Shown piece by piece: positions 1-61,830 of a stretch of DNA of 64,000 nt. The stretch comes from a virus. Made by a program: the position numbers and the translations under genes. The DNA lies in the IMG/VR virus record IMGVR_UViG_3300033141_002294, positions 4,482-68,481 of that record. One strand, written 5' to 3'. How positions within the stretch are numbered: position 1 is the first letter of the stretch; every line of letters starts with the position of its first letter. The notes under the pieces are model-generated. The model ran no database searches. It was not told the origin of the DNA and worked only from the letters and a program-made list of their open reading frames with translations.

Positions 1-990
1 CGCCCCGACCGCAGACAGGTCGCTGGTGATGCCCAGCGAGAGGACCGACCCGCTACTGGAGGCGGTGAGCCCCCGACAGGACAGGTCAGATGTAAGCGTA
101 GCACCGACGGCCGACAGGTCGGAAGTCACGCCAATGCTCAAGAACGAACCCGAACTGCTGACCGTAACACCCCGACTCACTTTGATGTCGCTCGTGACCG
201 ATAGCGACAGGGCAGAACCACTGCTGCTGAGGGTCAAGCCACGGGCGGAGATGTCCGAGGTTGCCGTCAGTCCGAGACAACTGACGTCAGACGTGACACC
301 GACGCTGAGAAACGATCCCGAACTGCTGGCGGTGAATCCCTGGCAGGTGATATCGCTCGAACTGGCGAGACTGTCCACCGTAGCATCGCTGGACAGGGTC
401 AGACTGCGCCCGGTAATGCCGCTTGTCACGCCCACCGACAGGAAACTCCCGCTACTCGACGCCGTAAATCCCTGGCAGGTAATGTCGCTGGAGGACGCCA
501 GGGAATCTACGGTTGCATCGCTGGACAGCGTCAGGGAACGTCCACTGATGCCGCTTGTTACGCCGACACTCAAAAATGAGCCACTACTCGATGCAGTGAA
601 TCCCTGGCAGGTGATGTCGCTACTCGACGCCACGCTGCCGACTGTGGCCTCACTCGAAAGAGTCAGGTTAATGCCGCTGATGCCACTACTGGAGGCGATG
701 GTCGCGCCGACTACCGCACTACTGGCGGTCAGGGTTTCGGCGGAGAAATCGCTCGTCAGTGTGAGCCCTCTGCCGGTAAACTCGCCGTCGGAGTCAATAG
801 ATGCCACGAGGGTTGTCGAACTGTCGTAGATGTTGACGCTCCGGGCACCGGCGGCGTCCCTCAGTTTGAGGTTGATGTCTCCGGTACTGCTGTCGGGGCG
901 GATGGTCACACCGCCGTCTTTACTGATTACCGTCTCGCCGAGGTCCGCACCCGGTGCATGGACCTGCCGACGGAACTTTTCAATACCCAT
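1..990 (-). CDS. Ser/Thr-rich repeat virion protein, probable head fibre (runs off the left window edge)
   Basis: Not in the ORF track. ATG at 990 with AGAGGTG RBS; frame open to position 1 (MGIEKFRRQVHAPG...). Has 11-aa repeat units such as SSDITCQGFTA/SSSGSFLSVGV and directly follows the major capsid gene. Confidence 0.75.
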   Translation of the reverse strand, partial: MGIEKFRRQVHAPGADLGETVISKDGGVTIRPDSSTGDINLKLRDAAGARSVNIYDSSTTLVASIDSDGEFTGRGLTLTSDFSAETLTASSAVVGATIASSSGISGINLTLSSEATVGSVASSSDITCQGFTASSSGSFLSVGVTSGISGRSLTLSSDATVDSLASSSDITCQGFTASSSGSFLSVGVTSGITGRSLTLSSDATVDSLASSSDITCQGFTASSSGSFLSVGVTSDVSCLGLTATSDISARGLTLSSSGSALSLSVTSDIKVSRGVTVSSSGSFLSIGVTSDLSAVGATLTSDLSCRGLTASSSGSVLSLGITSDLSAVGA

Positions 991-14035: not shown

Positions 14036-14121
14036 TGGGCCGGGCGGGGTTTGCACCCGCATCTCCGGGCTCCTCGCCCGGTGCTCTCAGAGTCGCCTCC
14101 ACTAAGTTGAGCTACCGGCCC
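14036..14121 (-). tRNA. atypical tRNA-like gene (anticodon position AGG, expanded D-loop)
   Basis: Acceptor GGGCCGG/CCGGCCC, D stem GCTC/GAGC, anticodon stem CCGGG/CCCGG with loop CGAGGAG, T arm GCGGG-TGCAAAC-CCCGC. Confidence 0.65.
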
Positions 14122-14430: not shown

Positions 14431-14504
14431 TGGCTGGGGCGGCAGGACTCGAACCTACGCTAGCGGGTTCAAAACCCGCTGTCTTACCACTTGACTACGC
14501 CCCA
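14431..14504 (-). tRNA. tRNA-Gln(UUG)
   Basis: TGGGGCG acceptor stem, anticodon loop TTTTGAA, GGTTCGAGTCC T arm, encoded CCA. Confidence 0.92.
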
Positions 14505-15658: not shown

Positions 15659-15690
15659 ACGTGTACACCCCTTTTCCTCCGCAAAACTAC

Positions 15691-15743
15691 AAAAAAACTA
15701 CAAACTGACCCAGGCCCCGGTGTCCCGATCCGGGGTGGGTCAG
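15691..15743 (-). terminator. intrinsic terminator closing the Cas/IbrAB operon
   Basis: CTGACCCA-CCCCGG..CCGGGG-CC-TGGGTCAG hairpin followed by TTTGTAGTTTTTTT. Confidence 0.7.
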
Positions 15744-15813
15744 CCAGATGGTGTTTCGCTCGCCTTGCTCGGGTGAGTCCTATTTCGACGTTTCCACTCG
15801 CCATTCCTGCCTG

Positions 15814-16902
15814 CTACAGGATTTTCGACCATTTCTCCACCATCTCGGGGCTCAACCCCCGGCTGACTACCGGCACGTTGTTCTCCCAGTCATTTAACAG
15901 TATCTGCCTGCACTGGTGCCGATGCACCGCTTCATTCTCCGCCTGCCCTGCAAAGCGCTTCCTAAATCGCTCCACCTTGTCCGTCGGCGTAGTGTCTAGC
16001 AGATAGTCGCGGTATTCCCTCCAGGTGCCGAAATGGGGGGGGAGCTCGTCGGCCGAGTACACCTGCCTGTCGTCTGCGTATAGCGCCGCACAGTGGATGC
16101 CCTGCAGCCTCCGTAGCAACCGCTCGTAGGTCTCCGGCTCGAACTCCTGGAGGTTGGCGAGGCAGTAGAATGCCTTCTCATGAATGAGGTTCGACACCCG
16201 CATATCACTGATGTTGTGGCCTATTTTGGCGAACATCTGGTCGTAGACGGGGTTGTACTCTAGGTTGTGGTCGGCGATATACTTCCAGATGTCGGGGAAG
16301 CACCAGTCGTAAATAGGGTAGAACCTCCAAGCCTGGGGGTTCTTAGTCTTCGTGCTCCACCATATGCCCTTGTAGCCCGGGTTCCTGGTAATTGCGCGAA
16401 ACCGGTTGAGGCTCTCTTTCGACCTGATACCCACTAGCATAGCGGTAGGCTCCTCAAACTGCGTCTCCAGCCAGTCGAAGAATTTGTAGAATCGCCTCGG
16501 GTAGTCCACATCGAGGGAGTGGATCGCGATGTCGCTCTTCTCCCGCATCCATTCCTCTCCCTCTCCCCAGGCGTAGAGGAAATACTCGCGGTGTGACGTC
16601 GCGTTAGTCATGTAGATCGGCACCTGATACCACATGGGAATGACCCGGGGATGGCGCATCATGCCGTCTATCAGGCGCACGGTTGCAGCATATTCGGCCT
16701 CCTGGTCGAGGAAAAACACTTTCACCTTTCTGTCACGCCGCTCTGCCTCCTCAATGGCCAGGTGAAACAAGACCGTGCTGTCTTTACCCGACGACACACT
16801 GACGACGATGTTGTCAAACTCGTCGAAGACCCTGGCAACCCGCTGCCTCGCGGCCTCCAGGACGTCTATGTCTTTGTACTCTACCAGTGCTGCCTTAGCC
16901 AT
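15814..16902 (-). CDS. IbrA/YbdN-like PAPS-reductase (PP-loop) family protein
   Basis: DVLEAARQRV, VSVSSGKDS PP-loop, GIRSKESLNR, YPIYDW..DIW and MRVS motifs. Confidence 0.9.
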   Translation of the reverse strand: MAKAALVEYKDIDVLEAARQRVARVFDEFDNIVVSVSSGKDSTVLFHLAIEEAERRDRKVKVFFLDQEAEYAATVRLIDGMMRHPRVIPMWYQVPIYMTNATSHREYFLYAWGEGEEWMREKSDIAIHSLDVDYPRRFYKFFDWLETQFEEPTAMLVGIRSKESLNRFRAITRNPGYKGIWWSTKTKNPQAWRFYPIYDWCFPDIWKYIADHNLEYNPVYDQMFAKIGHNISDMRVSNLIHEKAFYCLANLQEFEPETYERLLRRLQGIHCAALYADDRQVYSADELPPHFGTWREYRDYLLDTTPTDKVERFRKRFAGQAENEAVHRHQCRQILLNDWENNVPVVSRGLSPEMVEKWSKIL

Positions 16903-17674
16903 AGCGCAACCCCTCCGCAATGGCATTCGTCAGGTCCATCAGGCCCACCAGTTCGCTCACCAGATGCTCGTCGACCTTCAGGTCCGTGCGTACTACCTCA
17001 TGCTGCTCCCGGTCGAACAGTCTTGCTGGCGTGGGGACCCTGCGCTCAGGGCAGACATCTCTGGCATACCTCGCCAGCTTGGTGATTACCCCCCTGATGG
17101 TTGTCTCCGTCTCAAACAGGTATGTCTTCAGGTCCTCATACTCCAGCTTCTGCGCGGCCGTCGTCGGCACAACCCGGATCGTGGGTCTGCCGAAGTACTC
17201 TGCGTAGTCGCAAGTCACTGTGCCCTTCGCCCATCTCAGTATCTCCTCAGCCGAGAACGGGTTGAAGTCCGAAACATCCTCTTTCCACTGTTTCCAGCGG
17301 GTCTCTGCTATGTAGCTGTAGCTGTAGTCCAGGTACTGTGCGCCGACGAACCCGAAGTGGAACCACGTCCGCCAGGGTTCGCTGACGAACAGCGTCCGGT
17401 CTATCGACATCTTGCGGATGTCGCGCATACGATTGTAGACTATCTCCCATACGTGCTTCGTGCGGCTGGAGGGGGTTATGAGCCTGTTCAGCCCGACCAT
17501 CACGAGGTTGTCGAACCCCTTGATGCATCCCTGCGGGTCGTCCTCAAACCTCTCCCACTCGATTACCCGACTGCCCGGTATGTTTGGCGTAGGGTATGCC
17601 TTGTGCACCACGCAGACCGTTTTGCCGTCGAGTGGGGGGGAGAGGAACCCAATATCCTTACTCAGATAGATCAT
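16895..17674 (-). CDS. hypothetical protein, possibly a degenerate SNF2 N-terminal domain
   Basis: Coupled to both neighbours; EPWRTWFHFGFV..LDYSYSY and YEDLK..ITKL segments loosely recall SNF2_N, but Walker motifs are absent. Confidence 0.5.
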   Translation of the reverse strand: MIYLSKDIGFLSPPLDGKTVCVVHKAYPTPNIPGSRVIEWERFEDDPQGCIKGFDNLVMVGLNRLITPSSRTKHVWEIVYNRMRDIRKMSIDRTLFVSEPWRTWFHFGFVGAQYLDYSYSYIAETRWKQWKEDVSDFNPFSAEEILRWAKGTVTCDYAEYFGRPTIRVVPTTAAQKLEYEDLKTYLFETETTIRGVITKLARYARDVCPERRVPTPARLFDREQHEVVRTDLKVDEHLVSELVGLMDLTNAIAEGLRYG

Positions 17675-18279
17675 GGCGCGGCTCCCATGTACCGCGTGGC
17701 TACGTAGTAGACGCACTTGCGGTTGATGTCGGAGCAGATGAAACGCTTGCCGTGCTCCAATGCAGCGGCCGCGAGGTTGCCATAGCCGCAGTTAAAATCC
17801 AGGATCATGTCATGCCGCTGGCACACGTAGTGGACCACTATAGCCGGGGTCACCGCACCGAGAAGAGGGTGGAGGTTTGCGGCCAACGCATCTATCTCGG
17901 GCACATTGATAGCGGTGTTCCATACGCCCAATACGGCCGGATACCCACGGAGCTCGATGGGCCACGTTTCGGCAGGCTTCAGCGCTCTGACCATGTGCTT
18001 GCCTATCACCATGTACGTTGGGACCGCCAGGCGGACAATGACCCGCCGCATGGCCGCCAGGTAAGCCTTGTAGTCCCCGTCTTCAATACCTGCCCGGCTC
18101 CTGAACTTCCCGTACCCATCCCGCCAGGACGGTTCGGAGTAGATGGCATCCGCGTTCTCGAAATGGATATGGCCACCCCGGACAATATCATGCGCGAAAA
18201 CTACGCTGCCGCCAGCCTCGTAGCCCACCATCTCCGGCAACTCAAGCTCCGGCTTCAACGCCGAGTGGTAATCAGTCAT
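17671..18279 (-). CDS. atypical beta-class amino-methyltransferase
   Basis: AIYSEPSW in place of DPPY/W; SAM motif ILDFNCGYG; KRFICSDIN. Confidence 0.7.
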   Translation of the reverse strand: MTDYHSALKPELELPEMVGYEAGGSVVFAHDIVRGGHIHFENADAIYSEPSWRDGYGKFRSRAGIEDGDYKAYLAAMRRVIVRLAVPTYMVIGKHMVRALKPAETWPIELRGYPAVLGVWNTAINVPEIDALAANLHPLLGAVTPAIVVHYVCQRHDMILDFNCGYGNLAAAALEHGKRFICSDINRKCVYYVATRYMGAAP

Positions 18280-18913
18280 GGTTCCACGCCCCCCCCTGTT
18301 TGGCGACCCTGTCAATTGTTACCGCCAGCCGCCGTTTGTTCAGTTCCGTGCCGACAAACCGCTTCCCCATCGCAAACGCCGAACATGCCGTCAGCCCCCG
18401 CCCCATGCATGGATCGGCAACACAGGTCCAGTCCTCGACCTGCATAGCCAGCCCCGGTGTTGCCCCGTCGTCGTCGCCGGTGAAATCGTAGCTCTGCGGC
18501 TCGTCGCCGCCTCTCAATAGCACCATCGGATGTTTGCGGTAGTAGGTGATGGGCCACTCCTGGACTACAGGATACAGTTGCTGTAGGAGGTTGTGGTACA
18601 GGTGGACGTTCTGCCTGCCAATCTCCAAGTAGCATACTCGCGGGTTTGTATATGACAGATAGCTCAGCAGGACCTGGACCATCTCCTCGAATGTGTGGCG
18701 TTCTTCCAACCCTGCCTTGGTGTAGAATGAGTTGATGTTCCCCGTATTCCAGGGCGTATCAGTGTAGACCATGTCCGCTTCATGCATGTAGCCGGGCATG
18801 GAGTGGAAGATGTCCACTACTGCCAGCGTACTCCCGGTCTTCTGCTCCGTCCACACCTGCCCCGGCTCTATCGGGTAGCGTTCCCAACTGTCGCCATACG
18901 CCCAGCGGGTCAT
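18272..18913 (-). CDS. beta-class amino-methyltransferase
   Basis: ADMVYTDTPW (motif IV variant), VADPCMGRG, KRFVGTELN. Confidence 0.8.
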   Translation of the reverse strand: MTRWAYGDSWERYPIEPGQVWTEQKTGSTLAVVDIFHSMPGYMHEADMVYTDTPWNTGNINSFYTKAGLEERHTFEEMVQVLLSYLSYTNPRVCYLEIGRQNVHLYHNLLQQLYPVVQEWPITYYRKHPMVLLRGGDEPQSYDFTGDDDGATPGLAMQVEDWTCVADPCMGRGLTACSAFAMGKRFVGTELNKRRLAVTIDRVAKQGGAWNHD

Positions 18914-19413
18914 TCGATTTCACCCCACGCCGCACTGTATTCTGAACCGGCCAGGAGCTTCGCCGCCCCGCTCATCTGCTTCAGTCGTAGGAGCTCTTCC
19001 ACGCTCATGCCCAAGTGTTCGGCGATCCGCTCGTCCTCCCAACCCTTTTCGTAGAGCGACCGGACCAACTCCGACATCAGGTCCACCTGGTGTTTGCCCC
19101 GTGCCCGGTTGTGTCTGATGGTCGCGGCCATTCTCTGTTTGATGTCCTTGGCAATGACAACCACCGGGATTTCAGAACACTTGAAGTGGTTGACCAGCAG
19201 GGCGTAGCGATGGAACCCGTCAACCACAATGTACCTGCCCAGGTCCGGGTCATGGCAGACTACAATGGGTTGCGTGAGCCCGTCCTCTTCGATGCTCAGA
19301 CGAAGCAGTTCCATCTCCGGTGTCGCAACCTTGTTCGGGTTGTAGTCGTTCGCCTGGACCTTCTCGGCGGGAACCATCTGCACTTCGAGGCATGGGAATG
19401 TGATGTCAGGCAA
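18910..19413 (-). CDS. IbrB/YbdM-like ParB/Srx-domain protein
   Basis: ANDYNPNKVA, SIEEDGLTQPIV, IVVDGFHRY, ATIRHNRARGKH and a C-terminal HTH. Confidence 0.9.
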   Translation of the reverse strand: MPDITFPCLEVQMVPAEKVQANDYNPNKVATPEMELLRLSIEEDGLTQPIVVCHDPDLGRYIVVDGFHRYALLVNHFKCSEIPVVVIAKDIKQRMAATIRHNRARGKHQVDLMSELVRSLYEKGWEDERIAEHLGMSVEELLRLKQMSGAAKLLAGSEYSAAWGEIE

Positions 19414-20128
19414 AGTTCTTCACCTCCGGCACCCTGTTTGCCAACTGGCCATAGAGTTCCGGGTAGTACCGCTTCAGCCAGACGTACCTGCCGTACTCCC
19501 GGTTGGTCTCCCCGGCCCAGTAGCTCACTCGTAGTTCCTCCCGTGGGGCGATTGCCGTCTTATCATAGGCGGGGTGGTAGGGAATTCGGTGATGGTCGAT
19601 GTATACCCATACGTCCGCCTGCCTCCACCAGAGCATCGGCCACCCCTCCCACATCCCGTATTGCCTGGCCCAAAACAGGCTACCGTAGTGTGCCCCGCCC
19701 AGCCGCCTCCCCCGACTCTCTTCCGCCCGAATGCCGATTAGTCCTCCGTCATAGCCCTCGGCCACCAGTTGCCTCACCGGGTCATAGACTGTCGCCCTCA
19801 TCGTGCGCTCTTCAATGCGAGGGTCATCCAGGCCGTACTCGGCCAGCACGTCAAGAATGGGCCTGGTCCTGACCACTCGGAAGTTGATGTCCCACTCGGC
19901 CACCAGCCGCTGCATGTACTCCCATCCGTCCGGCAGGCAACTGTCGGCGTCGAGGTAGATGACCTCGATATCCGGCCTGATCTGGCGTGCAAACCACAAC
20001 ATCAATGTGCTGTCCTTCCCGCCCGACCATGCGAGGTATGGTCTCCGACACCGCGCCAGAAAGTCGCGGATCACCTGTTTTGTGGGTTCTCCCCGGACGC
20101 GCTCAATCCTCCTGGCTAGTGCGTCCAT
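19406..20128 (-). CDS. cysH: CysH-like PAPS-reductase family protein (type IV-B associated)
   Basis: AWSGGKDS PP-loop, GIRAEES..R, PMLWW..DVW.YI..IPYHPAYD; directly after csf3. Confidence 0.85.
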   Translation of the reverse strand: MDALARRIERVRGEPTKQVIRDFLARCRRPYLAWSGGKDSTLMLWFARQIRPDIEVIYLDADSCLPDGWEYMQRLVAEWDINFRVVRTRPILDVLAEYGLDDPRIEERTMRATVYDPVRQLVAEGYDGGLIGIRAEESRGRRLGGAHYGSLFWARQYGMWEGWPMLWWRQADVWVYIDHHRIPYHPAYDKTAIAPREELRVSYWAGETNREYGRYVWLKRYYPELYGQLANRVPEVKNFA

Positions 20129-20843
20129 GGAGTGCCTCCGCAGTCGGCAGGATGCATCGCGCCGCGTTCTCGGGATGCCAGTAGGGCGGCCTGATGCCCG
20201 CGATGTGTGGGCCGTCCGTCTGTGGGATGGCGCGCATCGGTTTGCCGGCGGAATCATGGCAAGACAGGTCCTCCGGCCAGGGTTCTACGCGCCATTCGGC
20301 AACCATCCCGTAGCCCATGCCGGTTTTCTTGCCTACCCCGATGATGGTATCCAGCAGGCTCCTGAGTTTGTCACCATTGCCCACGGCATACCATGTGAGT
20401 TCAGGCGTCACTAGGTACACTATCGGCATCCGGTACTCTTTGTAATACCCGCTGGAGGTTGGTACTCTGCCCCGGCGGCCGTCGAAGTCGACCCTCCTGG
20501 TAGCCTCGTCGACGTTGAATCGCTTATGCCAGTACGCTATGTGCTCTCCGTGCAACTCATACTGGGCGAATGAGCAGGCCCAGTACCATTCGCCGTCGGT
20601 CTCCCGGCGCTCCAGGGGCAGGGTGGGATGGAACAGGATGGCTCCCCCACACCGCCCCGCGGGGTTGTTGTAATACAGGTCCGGCCTGTGCCTGCGCATC
20701 CAGGCCGCGGCAATGATGCTGTCCAGGGGCAGGCGGCCATCGGTTGTGGCCACCTGCCCGGTCTCCAGGACTGCGGTAATCCTAAGCGGCTGCAATGCCC
20801 AGTACCTCGCGGATGGCGTCGGCATTCTTGTAGATGTATGCAT
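20103..20843 (-). CDS. csf3: type IV CRISPR Cas5-like protein Csf3
   Basis: PLRITAVL, LPLDSII, WYWACS, SGYYKEYRMP, WYAVG, Gly-rich loop GVGKKTGMGYG, MRAIP and GIRPPYWH. Confidence 0.88.
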   Translation of the reverse strand: MHTSTRMPTPSARYWALQPLRITAVLETGQVATTDGRLPLDSIIAAAWMRRHRPDLYYNNPAGRCGGAILFHPTLPLERRETDGEWYWACSFAQYELHGEHIAYWHKRFNVDEATRRVDFDGRRGRVPTSSGYYKEYRMPIVYLVTPELTWYAVGNGDKLRSLLDTIIGVGKKTGMGYGMVAEWRVEPWPEDLSCHDSAGKPMRAIPQTDGPHIAGIRPPYWHPENAARCILPTAEALHGRTSQED

Positions 20844-21705
20844 CGTAGTTGGTCAGAGCCGTTATCTTCGGCGGTTCCAGCGTAACCCAGCCCTCTCTTA
20901 AGGTGACCGATGCCTCCCTGCCTTCTCCGGTGCCCTCCGCCCAGTCCGCCTCCACAAGGCCGAATCCCAGACGGCTCATGCCCCCTATGTACGGTTGCCT
21001 GTTAAACTCGCGCAGACAGGACACAAACGCCCCGAGTTCCAACTGGGTCACGTCCACAAGGTCGATCCGCTGGTACAGCCTCGCGCCCGCACTCAGCACC
21101 TCAACGGTGTACCGCATCTGCTGGGGCCGGTCATCCTGCTGCGAGGGTTGTTCGCTCTGCACCTCGGCCAGATGCTCTCGCAGCAGTTCGCTCTTGGCGT
21201 CGTCGGTGCGCGTGAACGACCGTTCCTCCGTCCACTGGCCCCACGACGGGGCATTTGCATCCCTGTATCGTTCGGGCAATACTCTCTGCGCCTCGCGCAC
21301 CAGCGGCCACATGGCTCCAACCTTCATCTTGCCGCTCATAATCTGATTGCCGACACCACCGCCGAACAAGCTGAGCAGAGGCAGGGTCTCTCTGTACCGC
21401 CGGGCTTGGTCAACGTCGACTACATGTTTGCCGCCGATGGACCCGCCGGAAAACAGCAGGTAGAACATGTCTAAGGGCAGGCGGGGATTGCCCAGTCGCT
21501 CTAGGAGATACTTGGCTCCCAGGTCCCTCAACTGGCCACGGAATGCGTTACCCGAATAGCTGAAGCACTTCGCTGGACGGCCGTCTAGTCCGATAATCTC
21601 CGACTCCGACAGGTACGCCTCCGGGCCGGCAATCTCCCCGATATGGCTTAACGGTGACAACAGGGTAATGATTCCCTCCAGGCGGTAGTTCTGTGTCTTA
21701 TTCAT
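20782..21705 (-). CDS. csf2: type IV CRISPR Cas7-like backbone protein Csf2
   Basis: LSPLSHIG, SGNAFRGQLRD, LFSGGSI, PLLSLFGG, SFTRTDD, QQMRY.VE and Gly-rich loop IGGMSRLGFG. Confidence 0.92.
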   Translation of the reverse strand: MNKTQNYRLEGIITLLSPLSHIGEIAGPEAYLSESEIIGLDGRPAKCFSYSGNAFRGQLRDLGAKYLLERLGNPRLPLDMFYLLFSGGSIGGKHVVDVDQARRYRETLPLLSLFGGGVGNQIMSGKMKVGAMWPLVREAQRVLPERYRDANAPSWGQWTEERSFTRTDDAKSELLREHLAEVQSEQPSQQDDRPQQMRYTVEVLSAGARLYQRIDLVDVTQLELGAFVSCLREFNRQPYIGGMSRLGFGLVEADWAEGTGEGREASVTLREGWVTLEPPKITALTNYDAYIYKNADAIREVLGIAAA

Positions 21706-22174
21706 CCGATGCATCCTCCCCCTCTTTGTTGGCCAGTGGTTCTAGCGGTTTTTCGCGCTCCAGCCTGTCTCTCACCAGAGCAATCACGTAGCTGGTTTTG
21801 CCATACAGCGCTTTGGTGACGGCCTCGGCGTCTGCACGGTCGATGATGTTGACCCAGAACTCCCTGCGGTTCTCCTGCCCAGGGCCTACCAGTTCACCAG
21901 TTTCCGGGTTCTTGGCCAGCGTCACCGTCTCCAGTTCACCGGTGGTCATGAATCGCGGTTTGATATTCGAGCACTGGACCTTGGGCTTCAGCCGTTCAAT
22001 GAACTCCGGCAGATCGGCACTCCTCTTCGCGGCTGATTTGACCGCCCGCTCGATCCGGCCCCACATTTCGGGGTTAACCTTGAACCGCCTGGTATCCCTC
22101 GACCGATACACTCCGTACACCAGCAACGCACCAACCGCCGCCGCACCATCATTGGTCGCGAATCCATAAATCAT
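21698..22174 (-). CDS. type IV-B small subunit (Cas11-like)
   Basis: 158 aa helical protein directly upstream of csf2 with C-terminal VIALVRDRLERE; position matches the IV-B small subunit. Confidence 0.7.
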   Translation of the reverse strand: MIYGFATNDGAAAVGALLVYGVYRSRDTRRFKVNPEMWGRIERAVKSAAKRSADLPEFIERLKPKVQCSNIKPRFMTTGELETVTLAKNPETGELVGPGQENRREFWVNIIDRADAEAVTKALYGKTSYVIALVRDRLEREKPLEPLANKEGEDASDE

Positions 22175-22467
22175 CTGGCATACCCCCTCTTACACCGCTT
22201 GCCGTGCAACGCCGACTCTTCACCGAACACCGTTGGAATGCTGGGCCAGGCACCTTCACCCTCAACTACCGGGATGTAGACCGATCGACTTTCATACCAC
22301 CCCGCATATACCGGTCGCCCTTTGGTATCGACATCTACCGGAGTGCCCTGATCCTGCATCATGGCCTGTAGGGCTCTGATTGCCTCCGCCGCCGATACCT
22401 GAGCCACCCTCTCTTGAAACCTCTTGACAGCATGAGGCGTGACGAAATACGGCTGATCAAACTGCAT
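22171..22467 (-). CDS. small protein with HAxxRxxER motif (RelE/DUF4258-like BECR fold?)
   Basis: YFVTPHAVKRFQER; inserted between csf1 and cas11. Confidence 0.5.
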   Translation of the reverse strand: MQFDQPYFVTPHAVKRFQERVAQVSAAEAIRALQAMMQDQGTPVDVDTKGRPVYAGWYESRSVYIPVVEGEGAWPSIPTVFGEESALHGKRCKRGYAR

Positions 22468-23122
22468 TTGCCCGCGCCTCCAGTTTCCGGGCCAGCAGGA
22501 GCGCAAGGTCAAACCGACGCCGGGAGAGACGCAGTTCATCCAGCCGGGACGACAGAGCCTCGAATCGGTCTAGGCCCATACGCCTGATGCGCGCCGACTG
22601 ATACCGGCCCGTCCGAACCTCCATCTTGGAGAAGGTCGCCAGCGCCTGTTCAATCTGTTCCACGTCGACCCGTAACTGTTCCGGCCGAAACTGCGTCAGC
22701 GTCTCCTCGACAGCGATCCACGGCGCTTCGTTGCTGACGTTTACACGTGTTTTGAATACCAGATGTTTGTGCCCGCTTACGGCGATTGTCCCGACCCACG
22801 GTGGCTCGGGAGGGGACACCAGAATGTCGCGCCACTCTGTGCGCAATGGATGGCGCAACTCCGTCCGAGTGGCCAGCACAGAGCGGGTTCGAAATGGTTT
22901 ATGTTTGAGGCAGAACACGCAAGCCGCGCAGATAGACTGCCCTCCGCCACGGGCGAAATCCGGGTCGTTGAACGTATGGCTCACAACGTCTTTGACCAAA
23001 CGGCCCCAGCCGTGTGTCGGCCCCGCGCACAGCCAGCAATGGGCATCCGGCACCTCGGCGACGGAAATGTCATCATACCCGCTCACCATCGCCGCCTGAT
23101 AGACCAGTGCTGTGGGCATCAT
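22457..23122 (-). CDS. csf1: type IV CRISPR large subunit Csf1 (Cas8-like)
   Basis: CWLC..TFND..ICAAC Zn finger, PPEPPW and SGHKHL.FK..VN motifs. Confidence 0.85.
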   Translation of the reverse strand: MMPTALVYQAAMVSGYDDISVAEVPDAHCWLCAGPTHGWGRLVKDVVSHTFNDPDFARGGGQSICAACVFCLKHKPFRTRSVLATRTELRHPLRTEWRDILVSPPEPPWVGTIAVSGHKHLVFKTRVNVSNEAPWIAVEETLTQFRPEQLRVDVEQIEQALATFSKMEVRTGRYQSARIRRMGLDRFEALSSRLDELRLSRRRFDLALLLARKLEARANAV

Positions 23123-23337
23123 GGTGTTAGCCTCTTACTCCGTCCGTGTTCCCATATAGCGGTGATGCCTGTTACCAGCCAGCCAAGTCCTCCAGCTATG
23201 CCCAGCACATAATAACCTAGCGGGATTGAAACCCAAAGGTTTTCAGACAACGCTCCCAGTGACGCCCCAGTAATTAGGGACCCAGAAACAATGAGTATTA
23301 CTATGGGCCATGCCCGGCGATACTCATCAACAGTCAC
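23119..23337 (-). CDS. small membrane protein
   Basis: 72 aa with two hydrophobic helices. Confidence 0.5.
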   Translation of the reverse strand: MTVDEYRRAWPIVILIVSGSLITGASLGALSENLWVSIPLGYYVLGIAGGLGWLVTGITAIWEHGRSKRLTP

Positions 23338-24283: not shown

Positions 24284-25345
24284 TCATGTCACCCCCGCGA
24301 ATATCCGTTGTTGTTGCGTCTCCCGCTCTATCCGTCGCCGGGCCATCTGCACATACTCTGGATTAATCTCAATGCCAATACTATCGCGCCCGTACTGCTC
24401 GGCTACCAGCAAGGTTGTCCCCGCCCCACAGAAGGGGTCCAGGACAACGCACCTTCCCGAACCGTCGTTGTCGGGACAGATGCAGGTCGGTGCCCACTGG
24501 TTGGTCGGAGCGGTGGTCGGCCGCCAGTCGGTGCTGTCTGTCTTGGTCTTGGTATTGTGCGGCACATGGGCCGGTTCGCGCCCATTGCGGTGCCCAGTGC
24601 GCTCGACGACCCGTGCCCACGGCGCGCCGCAGATGGGACACGCACGGGGCGACGTCCCGGCGAGGATGCAACGGCGGGGCAGCTCGCGGGGAAATGTGGC
24701 GAAATGGGCCTCGGGGAATGGTTCGGTAGGGATAATCCAGACCGAACGGGCGTTGCGGCCAGCCGGGTGTAGGTGGTTGCTGCCCTCGTGGAGATTGCCT
24801 GAACCAACCCTGGGGACACCTACCGGGAGTCCCCGATACTTGGTCCGCCCTGTCTGGTGACCGCCCTGTGGCCAACGCACAGACGACTCCGGTTGGTGGG
24901 GTTCGCGAATAGCATCCGGGTCGTAGTAGTATTGCGGTTGCTGGCTGAGCAAGAAGATATACTCATGCGCTCCGCTGGGCCTGTCTTTTGTGCTCTCGGG
25001 TAAGGCGTTGTTTTTGTACCAGACGATGTCCCTGCGCCAATACCAGCCATCGTCCTGCAGGGCCAGGGCCACACGCGACGGGATGCCTACCAACCGTTTC
25101 CGCCGGTAGGTATCCCCGAGGTTGACCCACGCCGTACCATCCGGCCGCAGCACCCGCCGCACCTCCCGGAACACTTCAACCATGCGGGATACGTACTCCT
25201 GTGGCGTTTCCTCCAGCCCAATCTGTCCCGCCACTCCGTAGTCCCGTAGCCACCAGTAGGGCGGGGAGGTAACCACGCAATGGACCGATGCATCCTCCAG
25301 TTGGGCCAGTCCGTCCATGACGTCGGCGGTGATTATGCGGTACAT
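24284..25345 (-). CDS. N4-cytosine/N6-adenine DNA methyltransferase
   Basis: VTSPPY, HFATFP, VLDPFCGAGTT and GIEINPEY motifs. Confidence 0.92.
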   Translation of the reverse strand: MYRIITADVMDGLAQLEDASVHCVVTSPPYWWLRDYGVAGQIGLEETPQEYVSRMVEVFREVRRVLRPDGTAWVNLGDTYRRKRLVGIPSRVALALQDDGWYWRRDIVWYKNNALPESTKDRPSGAHEYIFLLSQQPQYYYDPDAIREPHQPESSVRWPQGGHQTGRTKYRGLPVGVPRVGSGNLHEGSNHLHPAGRNARSVWIIPTEPFPEAHFATFPRELPRRCILAGTSPRACPICGAPWARVVERTGHRNGREPAHVPHNTKTKTDSTDWRPTTAPTNQWAPTCICPDNDGSGRCVVLDPFCGAGTTLLVAEQYGRDSIGIEINPEYVQMARRRIERETQQQRIFAGVT

Positions 25346-35779: not shown

Positions 35780-36599
35780 TGTCGGCAACCTCCTCCGCCT
35801 GCTGGCGCAAGCGCATGTAGTCGGCCTCCTCGCGGGGCTCAAACACCGCAAACCTGCCGTCCACTGGCCCGACGGGCCAGTACCCCATCTGCCACACTTC
35901 CATGAGGGGCTCCCAGGGATTAGGGTGCGGAAGCCGGTCGGCCACGACGAGCCAGGCGGCACCCAGGGCGGCAGCCCGGGCGGCACCCCAGGCGGCAGCC
36001 CGGGCGGCCACGACGGGCCAGGCGACATCCCCGGCGACATCCCGGGCGGCATCCCAGGCGGCAGCCCGGGCGGCATCCCCGGCGGCATCCCAGGCGGCAT
36101 CCCCGGCGACAGCCCGGGATGAGACCCACTGTACAGGCACCGGCTGTGCGCCGTACGGCTCCAGCCGTCGCAGGTGCTCTGCGACCAGGGCCTCCACCCG
36201 CGCACGGTCGTGCGCCGGAGGCGCGAGCCAGGGATGCCCGGGCAGGGCCGCGATAAACTCCACCACCTGTTCCCCCTGCGGGCCGAACGCCTGGGCCAGC
36301 GGCAATTCCTCCTCGGCGCGGAGGCGGCGGACGCGCCATTTGTCGTCGCCCTCGATGATTATGTCCTCCAGGGCCGCCGACACCCGGAGCAACCGCAGCG
36401 GCCAGTGGTGGCCCCGGGACGCCAGGCCCGCCTGCTCCATGCGGGCGATGTGGAGGCCCGCCTTGCACAGTCCGGCCTCAGCGGGCGCGGGATTGGGGCA
36501 GGCCGCCTCCCGGCCTACCTCGTACTGCACCGTGCCGCTCCGGCAGTCGGTGTAGTCGTCCCGGACGATTTTGTACCCGGTGATGCGGTCGGTCATCAC
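35772..36599 (-). CDS. phage protein with Ala-rich AAWDAA repeat
   Basis: GYK..QYEVG..C..GLH..K.RVRRL N-terminal domain; 12-nt tandem repeat at about 35955-36118 encodes (AA(W/G/R)D)n. Confidence 0.7.
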
Positions 36600-61707: not shown

Positions 61708-61830
61708 GTAGCCGTCACTCCCTGTCTGTTCTCACCTCCCCTGGTGGCAACCCCGATACAAGGATGCGCCCCGGCAGGCGGTGGGGTAAAGCCGCTTTTC
61801 GCCGCGTCCGGCTATCCAGGGCGCAAGGGT

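Follow-up and report, generated by a model that had tools for sequence, protein, structure and literature searches.

An array-less type IV-B operon in a temperate phage and its IbrA/IbrB cassette: a candidate nucleic-acid modification machine

Type IV-B CRISPR-Cas loci are described as array-less and cysH-associated; they occur on plasmids, prophages and some phages, and their function is given as unknown (PMC8175902, PMC7937560, PMC7038947). Authors in the field have pointed to the CysH-like protein as the key to this function. What such a complex does, and with which partners, is the question raised by a locus in a temperate tailed phage, IMG/VR record IMGVR_UViG_3300033141_002294 (68,481 bp). 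The stretch of 64,000 nucleotides that we analysed, called the window here, corresponds to bases 4482-68481 of this record, and positions are those of the window unless another locus is named. Between 15814 and 23122, on the minus strand, we observed eleven abutting or overlapping co-directional open reading frames (ORFs), the number counted in a preliminary description of this DNA. Their order is csf1, a small protein with a His/Arg motif, a gene in the position of cas11, csf2, csf3, a cysH-like gene, ParB/IbrB, two methyltransferase-like genes (MT1 and MT2), an SNF2-like gene and IbrA. Searches with hidden Markov models (HMMs) from Pfam, NCBIfam, PHROG and PADLOC identified eight of the eleven.

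The last five genes form a cassette that also occurs away from cas genes. By comparing loci we found that this cassette alternates between two partners, an SNF2 helicase and a type IV-B unit, which had gone unnoticed in the preliminary description. In the phage locus and in six lineages related to it, the Csf/CysH unit is linked to a defined partner set (an SNF2-like protein, methyltransferases, a ParB/Srx protein and a second PP-loop enzyme), which gives a concrete, testable proposal for type IV-B function. The overall explanation that we favour, at about even confidence, is that the array-less type IV-B operon and its accessory cassette act jointly as a nucleic-acid modification machine.

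Two partners of one cassette

Scans with the SNF2-like protein of the window (259 amino acids, aa) recovered 26 loci from metagenomes and seven viral ones, of which one lies on the L053 contig. IbrA adjoined the homologue in all seven viral loci, and ParB was detected in all seven as well. Of the metagenome loci, 21 had a detected IbrA and 20 a detected ParB; the contigs of the remainder are short or cut. Homologues of MT1 were present in the cassettes of L015, L120, L121 and L127 and in many of the loci with an SNF2 helicase.

We observed an SNF2 helicase alongside the cassette, with no Csf gene, in 17 loci, where the order is SNF2-(MT1)-SNF2-like-IbrA-ParB. Three of the four helicases scanned carried both SNF2-rel_dom and Helicase_C; the fourth, from Flavobacterium phage FCV-1, carried SNF2-rel_dom only. 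In this phage the SNF2-domain protein adjoins ParB and IbrA, in the place taken by cas genes in the window, and the cultured Flavobacterium phages with the SNF2 form are a natural comparison system. The helicase of L122 was ZorD/DpdE-like by PADLOC. At an IbrA identity of 47-52%, the uncultured-virus SNF2 cassettes (L117-L122 and L134-L150) share the SNF2-like/IbrA/IbrB core of the window, and often also have a member of its MT1 family. They differ in having an active-looking SNF2 helicase, ParB as the last gene and no cas genes, whereas in the window subfamily ParB leads the cassette, the helicase is missing and a type IV-B operon is present.

The Csf form was seen in seven lineages, namely the window, L015/L016, L053 (=L116), L127, L130, L131 and L133, and Csf1, Csf2 or Csf3 was confirmed by HMM in L127, L130 and L133. 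In these lineages ParB is usually first, there is no SNF2 helicase, and the type IV genes are adjacent. SNF2-rel_dom was absent from the records of L053, L015 and L016 and present in those of L117 and L122; in the whole genome of the phage neither SNF2-rel_dom nor Helicase_C gave a match. Among the loci scanned, none held both an SNF2 helicase and Csf genes. Neither partner was seen in ten loci, nine of which are short or cut contigs, the tenth being L151 (20 kb). Read most simply, this pattern means that one SNF2-like/IbrA/IbrB core pairs with either the Csf/CysH unit or the SNF2 helicase.

The Csf-linked cassettes occur in five gene orders. In the window, L131 and L133 the csf genes through csf3 and cysH are followed by ParB-(MT)-SNF2-like-IbrA. 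In L015/L016 csf3 is followed by a 309-aa protein-IbrA-ParB-MT1 and then cysH, and in L127 by MT1-ParB-SNF2-like-IbrA and then cysH. In L053 csf2 is followed by ParB-SNF2-like-IbrA and then cysH-csf3, while in L130 SNF2-like-IbrA comes before csf1 and the genes after it. The cassette thus sits between core cas genes and cysH in three of the five orders. The 309-aa protein, which takes the SNF2-like position in L015, matched the family profile at an E-value of 1.5e-4 (probability 51%).

A 27-row tree of IbrA was used, one of 13 rows being too small to decide. In this tree six of the seven Csf-linked rows formed one clade (support 92/88), with L015 on a long branch, and the SNF2-linked rows together with five rows of unknown context formed another (100/99). 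The clustering of labels was equalled by none of 500 shuffles. For the same pairs of loci, IbrA was 57-65% identical and Csf2 only 22-27%. Either the cassette was kept with type IV-B loci over a long divergence, or it moved among very different type IV-B loci; both histories would speak for selection on the pairing of Csf genes and cassette.

We also looked at the distribution from the Csf side. Besides the window, 110 Csf2 loci were gathered, 71 viral and 39 from genomes; in the viral contigs a single protein as query found nothing, and an alignment-based query worked. ORF calls in GC-rich loci required manual care, many contigs are short, and the linkage evidence is all comparative. The core csf1-cas11-csf2-csf3-cysH was widespread among the 110 loci, and a true IbrA, ParB, MT1 or SNF2-like protein was found in only three of them: L053 and the pair L015 and L016, which represent a single type of virus. 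We placed the window, L015/L016 and L053 on a 67-row tree of Csf2, where each of the three has a position of its own; at least three changes are required by branches with good support. A large protein collection contains 733 relatives of Csf2. Among 50,697 phage records, Csf2 was present in one and IbrA in 223. The one cultured phage with Csf2 is Skermania phage SPI1, in which cas genes and cysH are present and the cassette is absent. A DNA-level search of the phage collection returned short ParB and IbrA matches only.

The preliminary description had treated the csf block and the IbrAB/methyltransferase block as one fused machine, and had named independent occurrence of the two as the result that would speak against it. 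At the level of the families such independence is what we found, with 107 of the 110 Csf2 loci free of the cassette; as a general property of type IV-B the fused machine does not hold, the modules being separable and each mostly found alone. Yet a distinct cassette subfamily is Csf-linked wherever its context is visible, in all seven lineages. This Csf-linked subfamily, its five gene orders and the three orders with the cassette inside the cas-cysH unit therefore support a functional link, and we consider it quite probable from these comparisons that the Csf block and the cassette cooperate.

In the literature search no paper was found linking type IV-B to IbrAB or SNF2-like genes, although supplementary neighbourhood tables may bear on this. 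The words 'ParB' and 'methyltransferase' are absent from the main text of PMC7038947 and PMC8175902, and a figure legend in bioRxiv 10.1101/270033 lists 'N6-MTase' among the genes drawn near type IV-B loci.

Gene products of the operon

The coordinates and best matches of the eleven genes are collected in Table 1. The E-values of csf1, csf2 and csf3 against TIGR03114/5/6 were all below the curated cut-offs, and together with PADLOC and the PAPS_reduct domain they bear out the earlier calls of csf1, csf2, csf3 and a cysH-like gene. Among solved structures, the Csf2 family profile matched best the type IV-B Csf2 of the Mycobacterium sp. JS623 complex (7jhy_e, 9.4e-24), and scored almost equally on Cas7c of type IV-C (2.5e-23). 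The phage operon resembles the JS623 locus (PDB 7jhy) in its gene set and order, in its cysH-like neighbour, in lying on a mobile element, and in having no array, cas6, dinG or adaptation module. It differs in the five-gene IbrB/methyltransferase/SNF2-like/IbrA cassette and the small His/Arg-motif protein that lie inside the phage operon.

The preliminary description had reported no array, cas1/2, cas6 or DinG in the window, and had left room for an array in the 4.5 kb outside it. An exact direct terminal repeat of 114 bp on the 68,481-bp sequence indicates that the whole genome is at hand. Repeat scans of this complete genome found no CRISPR-like spaced repeats, and Cas6 (PF10040), Cas6e (PF08798), Cas1 (PF01867), Cas2 (PF09827) and the DinG-type Helicase_C_2 (PF13307) gave no match anywhere in it. 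The absence therefore extends to the whole genome, and the matter of the outer 4.5 kb is settled.

The 158-aa protein between csf1 and csf2 had been called cas11-like. Its family occupies this position in 29 loci, which is the sole ground for the name; as to family identity, the protein had no significant family match, and its only PDB match was Cas11c of type IV-C at an E-value of 0.24.

In clustering, the cysH-like gene fell together with its counterparts from 55 other Csf loci. The best solved relatives of its family profile were phosphoadenosine phosphosulfate (PAPS) reductases (6vpu, 1.6e-27), and the PDB matches also included tRNA thiolases (TtuA) and other PP-loop enzymes. In the family alignment (n=41) we observed that the PP-loop motif SxGKDS is invariant and that no cysteine is invariant or nearly so. 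For this reason the protein is, on the alignment, an ATP-pyrophosphatase-type enzyme and not a reductase of the sulfate pathway. A true PAPS reductase is defined by a conserved C-terminal catalytic cysteine (PMC8175902), which this family does not have, and the argument made on type IV-B CysH in the same paper agrees with the non-reductase view.

The earlier assignments of ParB/IbrB and of an IbrA-like protein were likewise confirmed, by ParB_N and phrog_2159 for the former and by PAPS_reduct and DUF3440 for the latter; the two genes lie 2 kb apart within the cassette. The IbrB motifs NDYNPN, DGxHR and NRxxGxHQV were kept in eight sequences. In IbrA (n=8) the PP-loop is kept and there is no invariant cysteine. 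IbrA/IbrB pairs with the same domain make-up occur in Streptococcus phage CHPC1230 and in Flavobacterium phage FCV-1, and the window IbrA is 45% identical to that of the Flavobacterium phage; unlike these pairs, the window pair is split by two methyltransferase-like genes and the SNF2-like gene and is joined to cas genes. As a separate observation, L121 encodes a further, third PAPS_reduct protein (L121:14771-15769, 9.2e-20) about 2.5 kb downstream of its SNF2-type cassette, and SNF2-type cassettes may thus also come with a second PP-loop enzyme. In L122 an ORF of 930 aa (L122:12165-14957) follows the SNF2-type cassette directly; within it we saw an intein that bears a LAGLIDADG domain, and DnaB_C was matched weakly (E 6e-4, short of the cut-off).

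MT1 and MT2 are paralogues, with 22% identity over 183 aa by BLASTP (E 3e-7). Amino-methyltransferases of the beta class that act on N6 or N4 are marked by motif I for S-adenosylmethionine (SAM) and by motif IV, (D/N/S)PP(Y/F/W). The motif IV position reads DTPW in MT1, EPSW in MT2, and DPPW in the MT1 homologues of L015 and L121. The two proteins, called methyltransferases earlier, are methyltransferase-like: with motif I they match only the C-terminal SAM-binding part of N6_N4_Mtase, both short of the Pfam cut-off, and motif IV is deviant.

The gene between MT2 and IbrA, which had been listed as unknown, encodes the 259-aa protein. An AlphaFold2 (AF2) model (predicted local distance difference test, pLDDT, 97.3) matched CSB (VIA Z 12.6, root-mean-square deviation 4.9, 243/259 residues) and SWR1 (Z 12.0), with a Foldseek E-value of 4.3e-5. 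The top 22 entries were SNF2-family or related proteins, Chd1, INO80 and ZorD among them, and the SNF2 region to which the protein aligned is about twice as long as the protein itself. In searches with its sequence, no Pfam SNF2, helicase or P-loop match and no NCBIfam or PADLOC match was obtained, and a sequence-profile search of the PDB gave nothing significant. SNF2 ATPases are marked by Walker A and DExx motifs, which this protein does not have; across 50 homologues the only residues found in invariant columns were R, S, Y, F and L, none of them acidic. The family counts 84 cluster representatives among 1.84 billion proteins. In a protein atlas it had no feature match, and the atlas model (pLDDT 0.41) leaned weakly toward SNF2 clusters. 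By its predicted structure, the 259-aa protein has a two-lobe SNF2-like fold without ATPase motifs, and a fold is thereby assigned to a protein family of unknown function.

Table 1. Features of the operon and of its surroundings, in window positions
Feature	Position	Strand	ORF can extend to	Basis or remark
csf1 (type IV large subunit, Cas8-like)	22457..23122	-		TIGR03114 3e-16; PADLOC Csf1_0_IV 4.5e-30
Small protein, 98 aa	22171..22467	-	22539	Motifs PHAxxRFxER and WPxVPT; start revised to 22467
Small-subunit candidate in cas11 position, 158 aa	21698..22174	-		Family position between csf1 and csf2
csf2 (Cas7 backbone)	20782..21714	-		TIGR03115 1.1e-20; PADLOC Csf2_0_IV 1.1e-64
csf3 (Cas5)	20103..20843	-		TIGR03116 3.8e-20; PADLOC Csf3_0_IV 6.5e-50
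cysH-like PP-loop protein	19406..20128	-	20257	PAPS_reduct 1.9e-13; directly after csf3; start revised to 20128
IbrB-like ParB/Srx protein	18910..19413	-		ParB_N 4.4e-9; phrog_2159 5.6e-63
MT1, short beta-class (permuted) amino-methyltransferase-like	18272..18913	-		N6_N4_Mtase, C-terminal SAM motif, 4.8e-5
MT2, MT1 paralogue	17671..18315	-		N6_N4_Mtase, C-terminal SAM motif, 9e-4; methyltransferase matches weak; motif I present
SNF2-like protein without ATPase motifs, 259 aa	16895..17674	-	17716	Predicted fold; start revised to 17674
IbrA-like PP-loop protein	15814..16902	-	16926	PF01507 PAPS_reduct 6.7e-21; PF11922 DUF3440 6.7e-11; start revised to 16902
Intrinsic-terminator-like hairpin and U-rich tract	15683-15745 (approx.)	-		16-pair stem; folding energy dG -42.6; z -2.75
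72-aa ORF	23119-23337			Overlaps csf1 start codon
Second N6_N4 methyltransferase, full-length	24284-25345			2.7e-47; after RusA
tRNA-Gln	14431-14504			Between cassette and terminase genes; Rfam agrees
tRNA-Ala call	14036-14121			ARAGORN only; likewise between cassette and terminase genes
int-alpA small RNA match	61751-61822	-		Rfam, 48.7 bits, above gathering score
Tandem repeat	383-621			132-bp unit, 1.8 copies, 76% matches
Degenerate 12/24/36/66-bp tandem repeat	35927-36118			GGC/CCC-rich

A possible modification machine and its alternatives

The gene content of the cassette recalls systems that modify DNA. Dnd, Ssp and BREX type 4 likewise pair a PP-loop protein of the PAPS-reductase fold (DndC, SspD, BrxP) with a ParB/Srx protein (DndB is ParB-like), and weak PADLOC matches were obtained from IbrA to DndC (1.2e-9) and from the cysH-like protein to BrxP (1.3e-8). 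The resemblance stops at the sulfur chemistry. The cysteines of DndC have an iron-sulfur role. DndC carries a cysteine dyad (PMC12839542), which IbrA does not have, and unlike these systems neither PP-loop family of the window has an invariant cysteine, nor was a cysteine desulfurase seen in the operon. For these reasons sulfur insertion by the PP-loop enzymes of the window appears unlikely, and the lack of conserved cysteines argues against phosphorothioation; the reasoning in PMC8175902 is consistent with this. Phage ParB homologues have been reported to activate a DNA-modifying dioxygenase on double-stranded DNA (PMC13229309), and DpdB is described as a ParB-like ATPase in the Dpd DNA modification system (PMC12839542). 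Because of these phage precedents for ParB/Srx proteins, the amino-methyltransferase motifs, the SNF2 partner in the sister cassettes and the weak similarity to DndC and BrxP, the core of the cassette is suggested to act on DNA.

The analysis shows which genes are present, how their products fold, that an array is missing and how the blocks are linked; activity, substrate, protein contacts and direction of benefit we infer as follows. The Csf block and the cassette would work together, the cassette being a machine that modifies nucleic acid at the polymer level, most likely DNA. Adenylation of a target group would fall to the PP-loop enzymes and methyl marking to the methyltransferases, with the ParB-like protein as activator or loader. 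The RNA-loaded Csf filament would take over the job of the SNF2 motor in engaging or opening the substrate, and the phage or prophage would gain from the result when in conflict with its host or with rival elements. The suggestion of the preliminary description, in which the Csf complex may be the scaffold or targeting part of a modification machine, is a reasonable inference from the linkage. A filament of Csf2 and Cas11 on RNA is known for the 7jhy complex only (PMC7937560). Whether the substrate is DNA, as opposed to RNA or to no substrate at all in a purely regulatory device, we judge to be evenly balanced, and that the filament replaces the SNF2 motor is doubtful. More speculative than this is a general form of the proposal, which we put forward only tentatively: type IV-B Csf complexes would be substrate-engaging modules for epigenetic writers, the RNA-loaded filament replacing the SNF2 motor and opening or marking DNA for base modification by two cysteine-free PP-loop enzymes, a ParB-like activator and small amino-methyltransferases. 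If true, this would be the first function assigned to type IV-B and a natural RNA-directed DNA-modification system.

Several observations weigh against a joint machine. The cassette is, on the loci gathered, a minority accessory module and cannot explain type IV-B function generally. The alternation between SNF2 and Csf is built on 17 and seven loci, many of them short contigs, and L151 has neither partner. A single old fusion could have been inherited and rearranged, since a single origin is compatible with the IbrA tree. Adjacency by itself is weak evidence here, because the region is a long co-directional array in a part of the phage genome where methyltransferases are common, with a second N6_N4 methyltransferase 1.2 kb upstream of csf1. 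Given their departures from DPPW, MT1 and MT2 of the window may be inactive, and the 259-aa protein lacks ATPase motifs. No RNA gene, mini-array or Rfam family was found in or beside the operon, and no chemistry for IbrA or IbrB was found in the literature search.

Some of these points fit the idea that two unrelated mobile modules share the same accessory region upstream of the packaging genes, and that one juxtaposition was inherited and shuffled with no cooperation. The 107 Csf2 loci without the cassette and the 17 cassette loci without Csf agree with it, as do the frequent placement of IbrA near terminase or portal genes in phage records, the other methyltransferase in the same array of the window, and the compatibility of the IbrA tree with one origin of the linkage. 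We consider this improbable, since the linkage persists at 22-27% Csf2 identity across the five orders, three of them with the cassette between the cas genes and cysH, and no Csf-linked record has the SNF2 helicase of the sister cassettes; an association kept by neutral hitch-hiking would not be expected to last through divergence of this extent. Cooperation of another kind, in a gene-expression switch, is given a rather small chance. Here IbrA and IbrB would co-activate prophage genes while the Csf ribonucleoprotein blocks or redirects transcription, like the nuclease-free type IV-A, with an effect on late-gene timing. Phage records do carry the name 'co-activator of prophage gene expression IbrA/IbrB', the cassette directly precedes tRNA, terminase and portal genes, and SNF2 proteins can act on RNA polymerase. 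However, the 'co-activator' name is a database annotation, and PP-loop adenylating enzymes and SAM-dependent methyltransferase folds indicate covalent chemistry more than mere binding to DNA.

The modification might instead fall on RNA, with an RNA of the cell or of the phage being held by the Csf filament, or cut by the RNase-like small protein, and then modified by the PP-loop enzymes and methyltransferases in the manner of tRNA-modifying PP-loop enzymes. The solved type IV-B complex binds mixed-sequence RNAs of about 55-60 nt (PMC7937560), tRNA thiolases are among the matches of the cysH-like family, and a BECR-like small protein occurs in a subset of Csf loci, never alongside either Cas6-like family. 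The RNase assignment is weak (Z at most 6), and ParB/Srx proteins, the SNF2 helicase of the sister cassettes and beta-class N6/N4-type motifs are typical of DNA-directed systems, so that we see only a slight chance for RNA as the substrate. The idea that the Csf complex is a sponge for host CRISPR RNAs, and thus an anti-CRISPR, with the cassette as an unrelated anti-restriction device, is very improbable. It has been raised for type IV-B (PMC7937560, PMC7038947) and fits the lack of an array and of adaptation genes, but it is called unlikely by the authors of one of these papers (PMC7038947) and leaves unexplained the near-invariant cysH, the linkage of the cassette and the SNF2/Csf alternation.

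Small protein, Cas6-like genes and genome context

The HAxxR motif noted earlier in the small protein is present, within PHAxxRFxER. In 15 aligned members of the family, all drawn from Csf loci, H12, F17, W74 and T79 are invariant and the motif arginine is nearly so; a word-indexed homologue search gave one relative. The protein had no Pfam match, and a sequence-profile search of the PDB gave nothing significant. The AF2 model (pLDDT 80.7) gave fold matches that were all weak, namely CdiA-CT (Z 6.0), the colicin D tRNase (Z 5.9) and then ParE/RelE, with Foldseek E-values of at least 0.05. A BECR/RelE-like RNase fold is thus possible on the model. The small protein was present in 20 of the 111 Csf loci, a Cas6-like family (PF10040, 2.4e-12) in 17 and a Cas6e-like family (PF08798, 6.9e-10) in ten, and no locus held two of the three. 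This mutual exclusion fits a role of the small protein in RNA processing, and may simply follow clade structure. An apparent fusion of CysH with the small protein in L053 was rejected, as the 369-aa ORF is mostly in the wrong frame and its likeness to the small protein is limited to the final ~85 residues.

A Cas6-family gene (PF10040 or PF08798) lies inside the operon in 27 of the 111 type IV-B-like loci. The Cas6-like loci include L005, L011, L025-L029, L031, L034, L036, L046, L086, L092-L094 and others; the Cas6e-like loci are L028, L032, L033, L037, L041-L044, L047 and L097. Just 12 instances of Cas6 in type IV-B are reported in PMC7038947, and RNA processing may be commoner in viral type IV-B-like loci than the textbook picture suggests. 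On the viral contig of L031, whose type IV-B-like operon is accompanied by a Cas6-like gene, four repeats of 29 nt, spaced at 61 nt, make up a mini-array about 1.5 kb downstream (L031:15556-15774). In L081, a Peptococcaceae contig, approximately nine repeats of ~31 nt at 55-71-nt spacing (L081:20410-20911) lie 10 kb downstream of the type IV-B operon and are maybe a host CRISPR array. In the Csf-linked cassette locus L130, an ORF that is probably two genes run together (L130:3581-4801) matched Cas6 (TIGR01877, 1.4e-11).

The preliminary description had placed the eleven genes in a single operon closed by a terminator. The 3' end is supported by a terminator-like hairpin (Table 1), which was found by sequence and RNA folding, a consensus scanner having returned no terminator on the minus strand. 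Toward the 5' side no such boundary was seen: the co-directional array runs on upstream of csf1, and no promoter-like site was found ahead of this gene. For four genes, homologues and overlaps of 4-8 nt indicate shorter true starts. The 72-aa ORF at the csf1 start codon looks hydrophobic or membrane-like by eye and may share the transcription unit. The full-length methyltransferase upstream of csf1 has an extra C-terminal class I methyltransferase motif.

The phage has a G+C content of 60%. Among its other gene products are an integrase, an SbcC-like ATPase, ThyX, a DnaC/IstB-like loader, RusA and the full-length N6_N4 methyltransferase; downstream, beyond the locus, are a terminase, a Mu-like portal and a tape-measure protein. 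The relatives of Csf2 are mostly in Bacillota genomes. The tRNA-Ala call overlaps the ORF of a helix-turn-helix protein and may be false, and the degenerate tandem repeat is probably a Gly/Pro-rich coding repeat.

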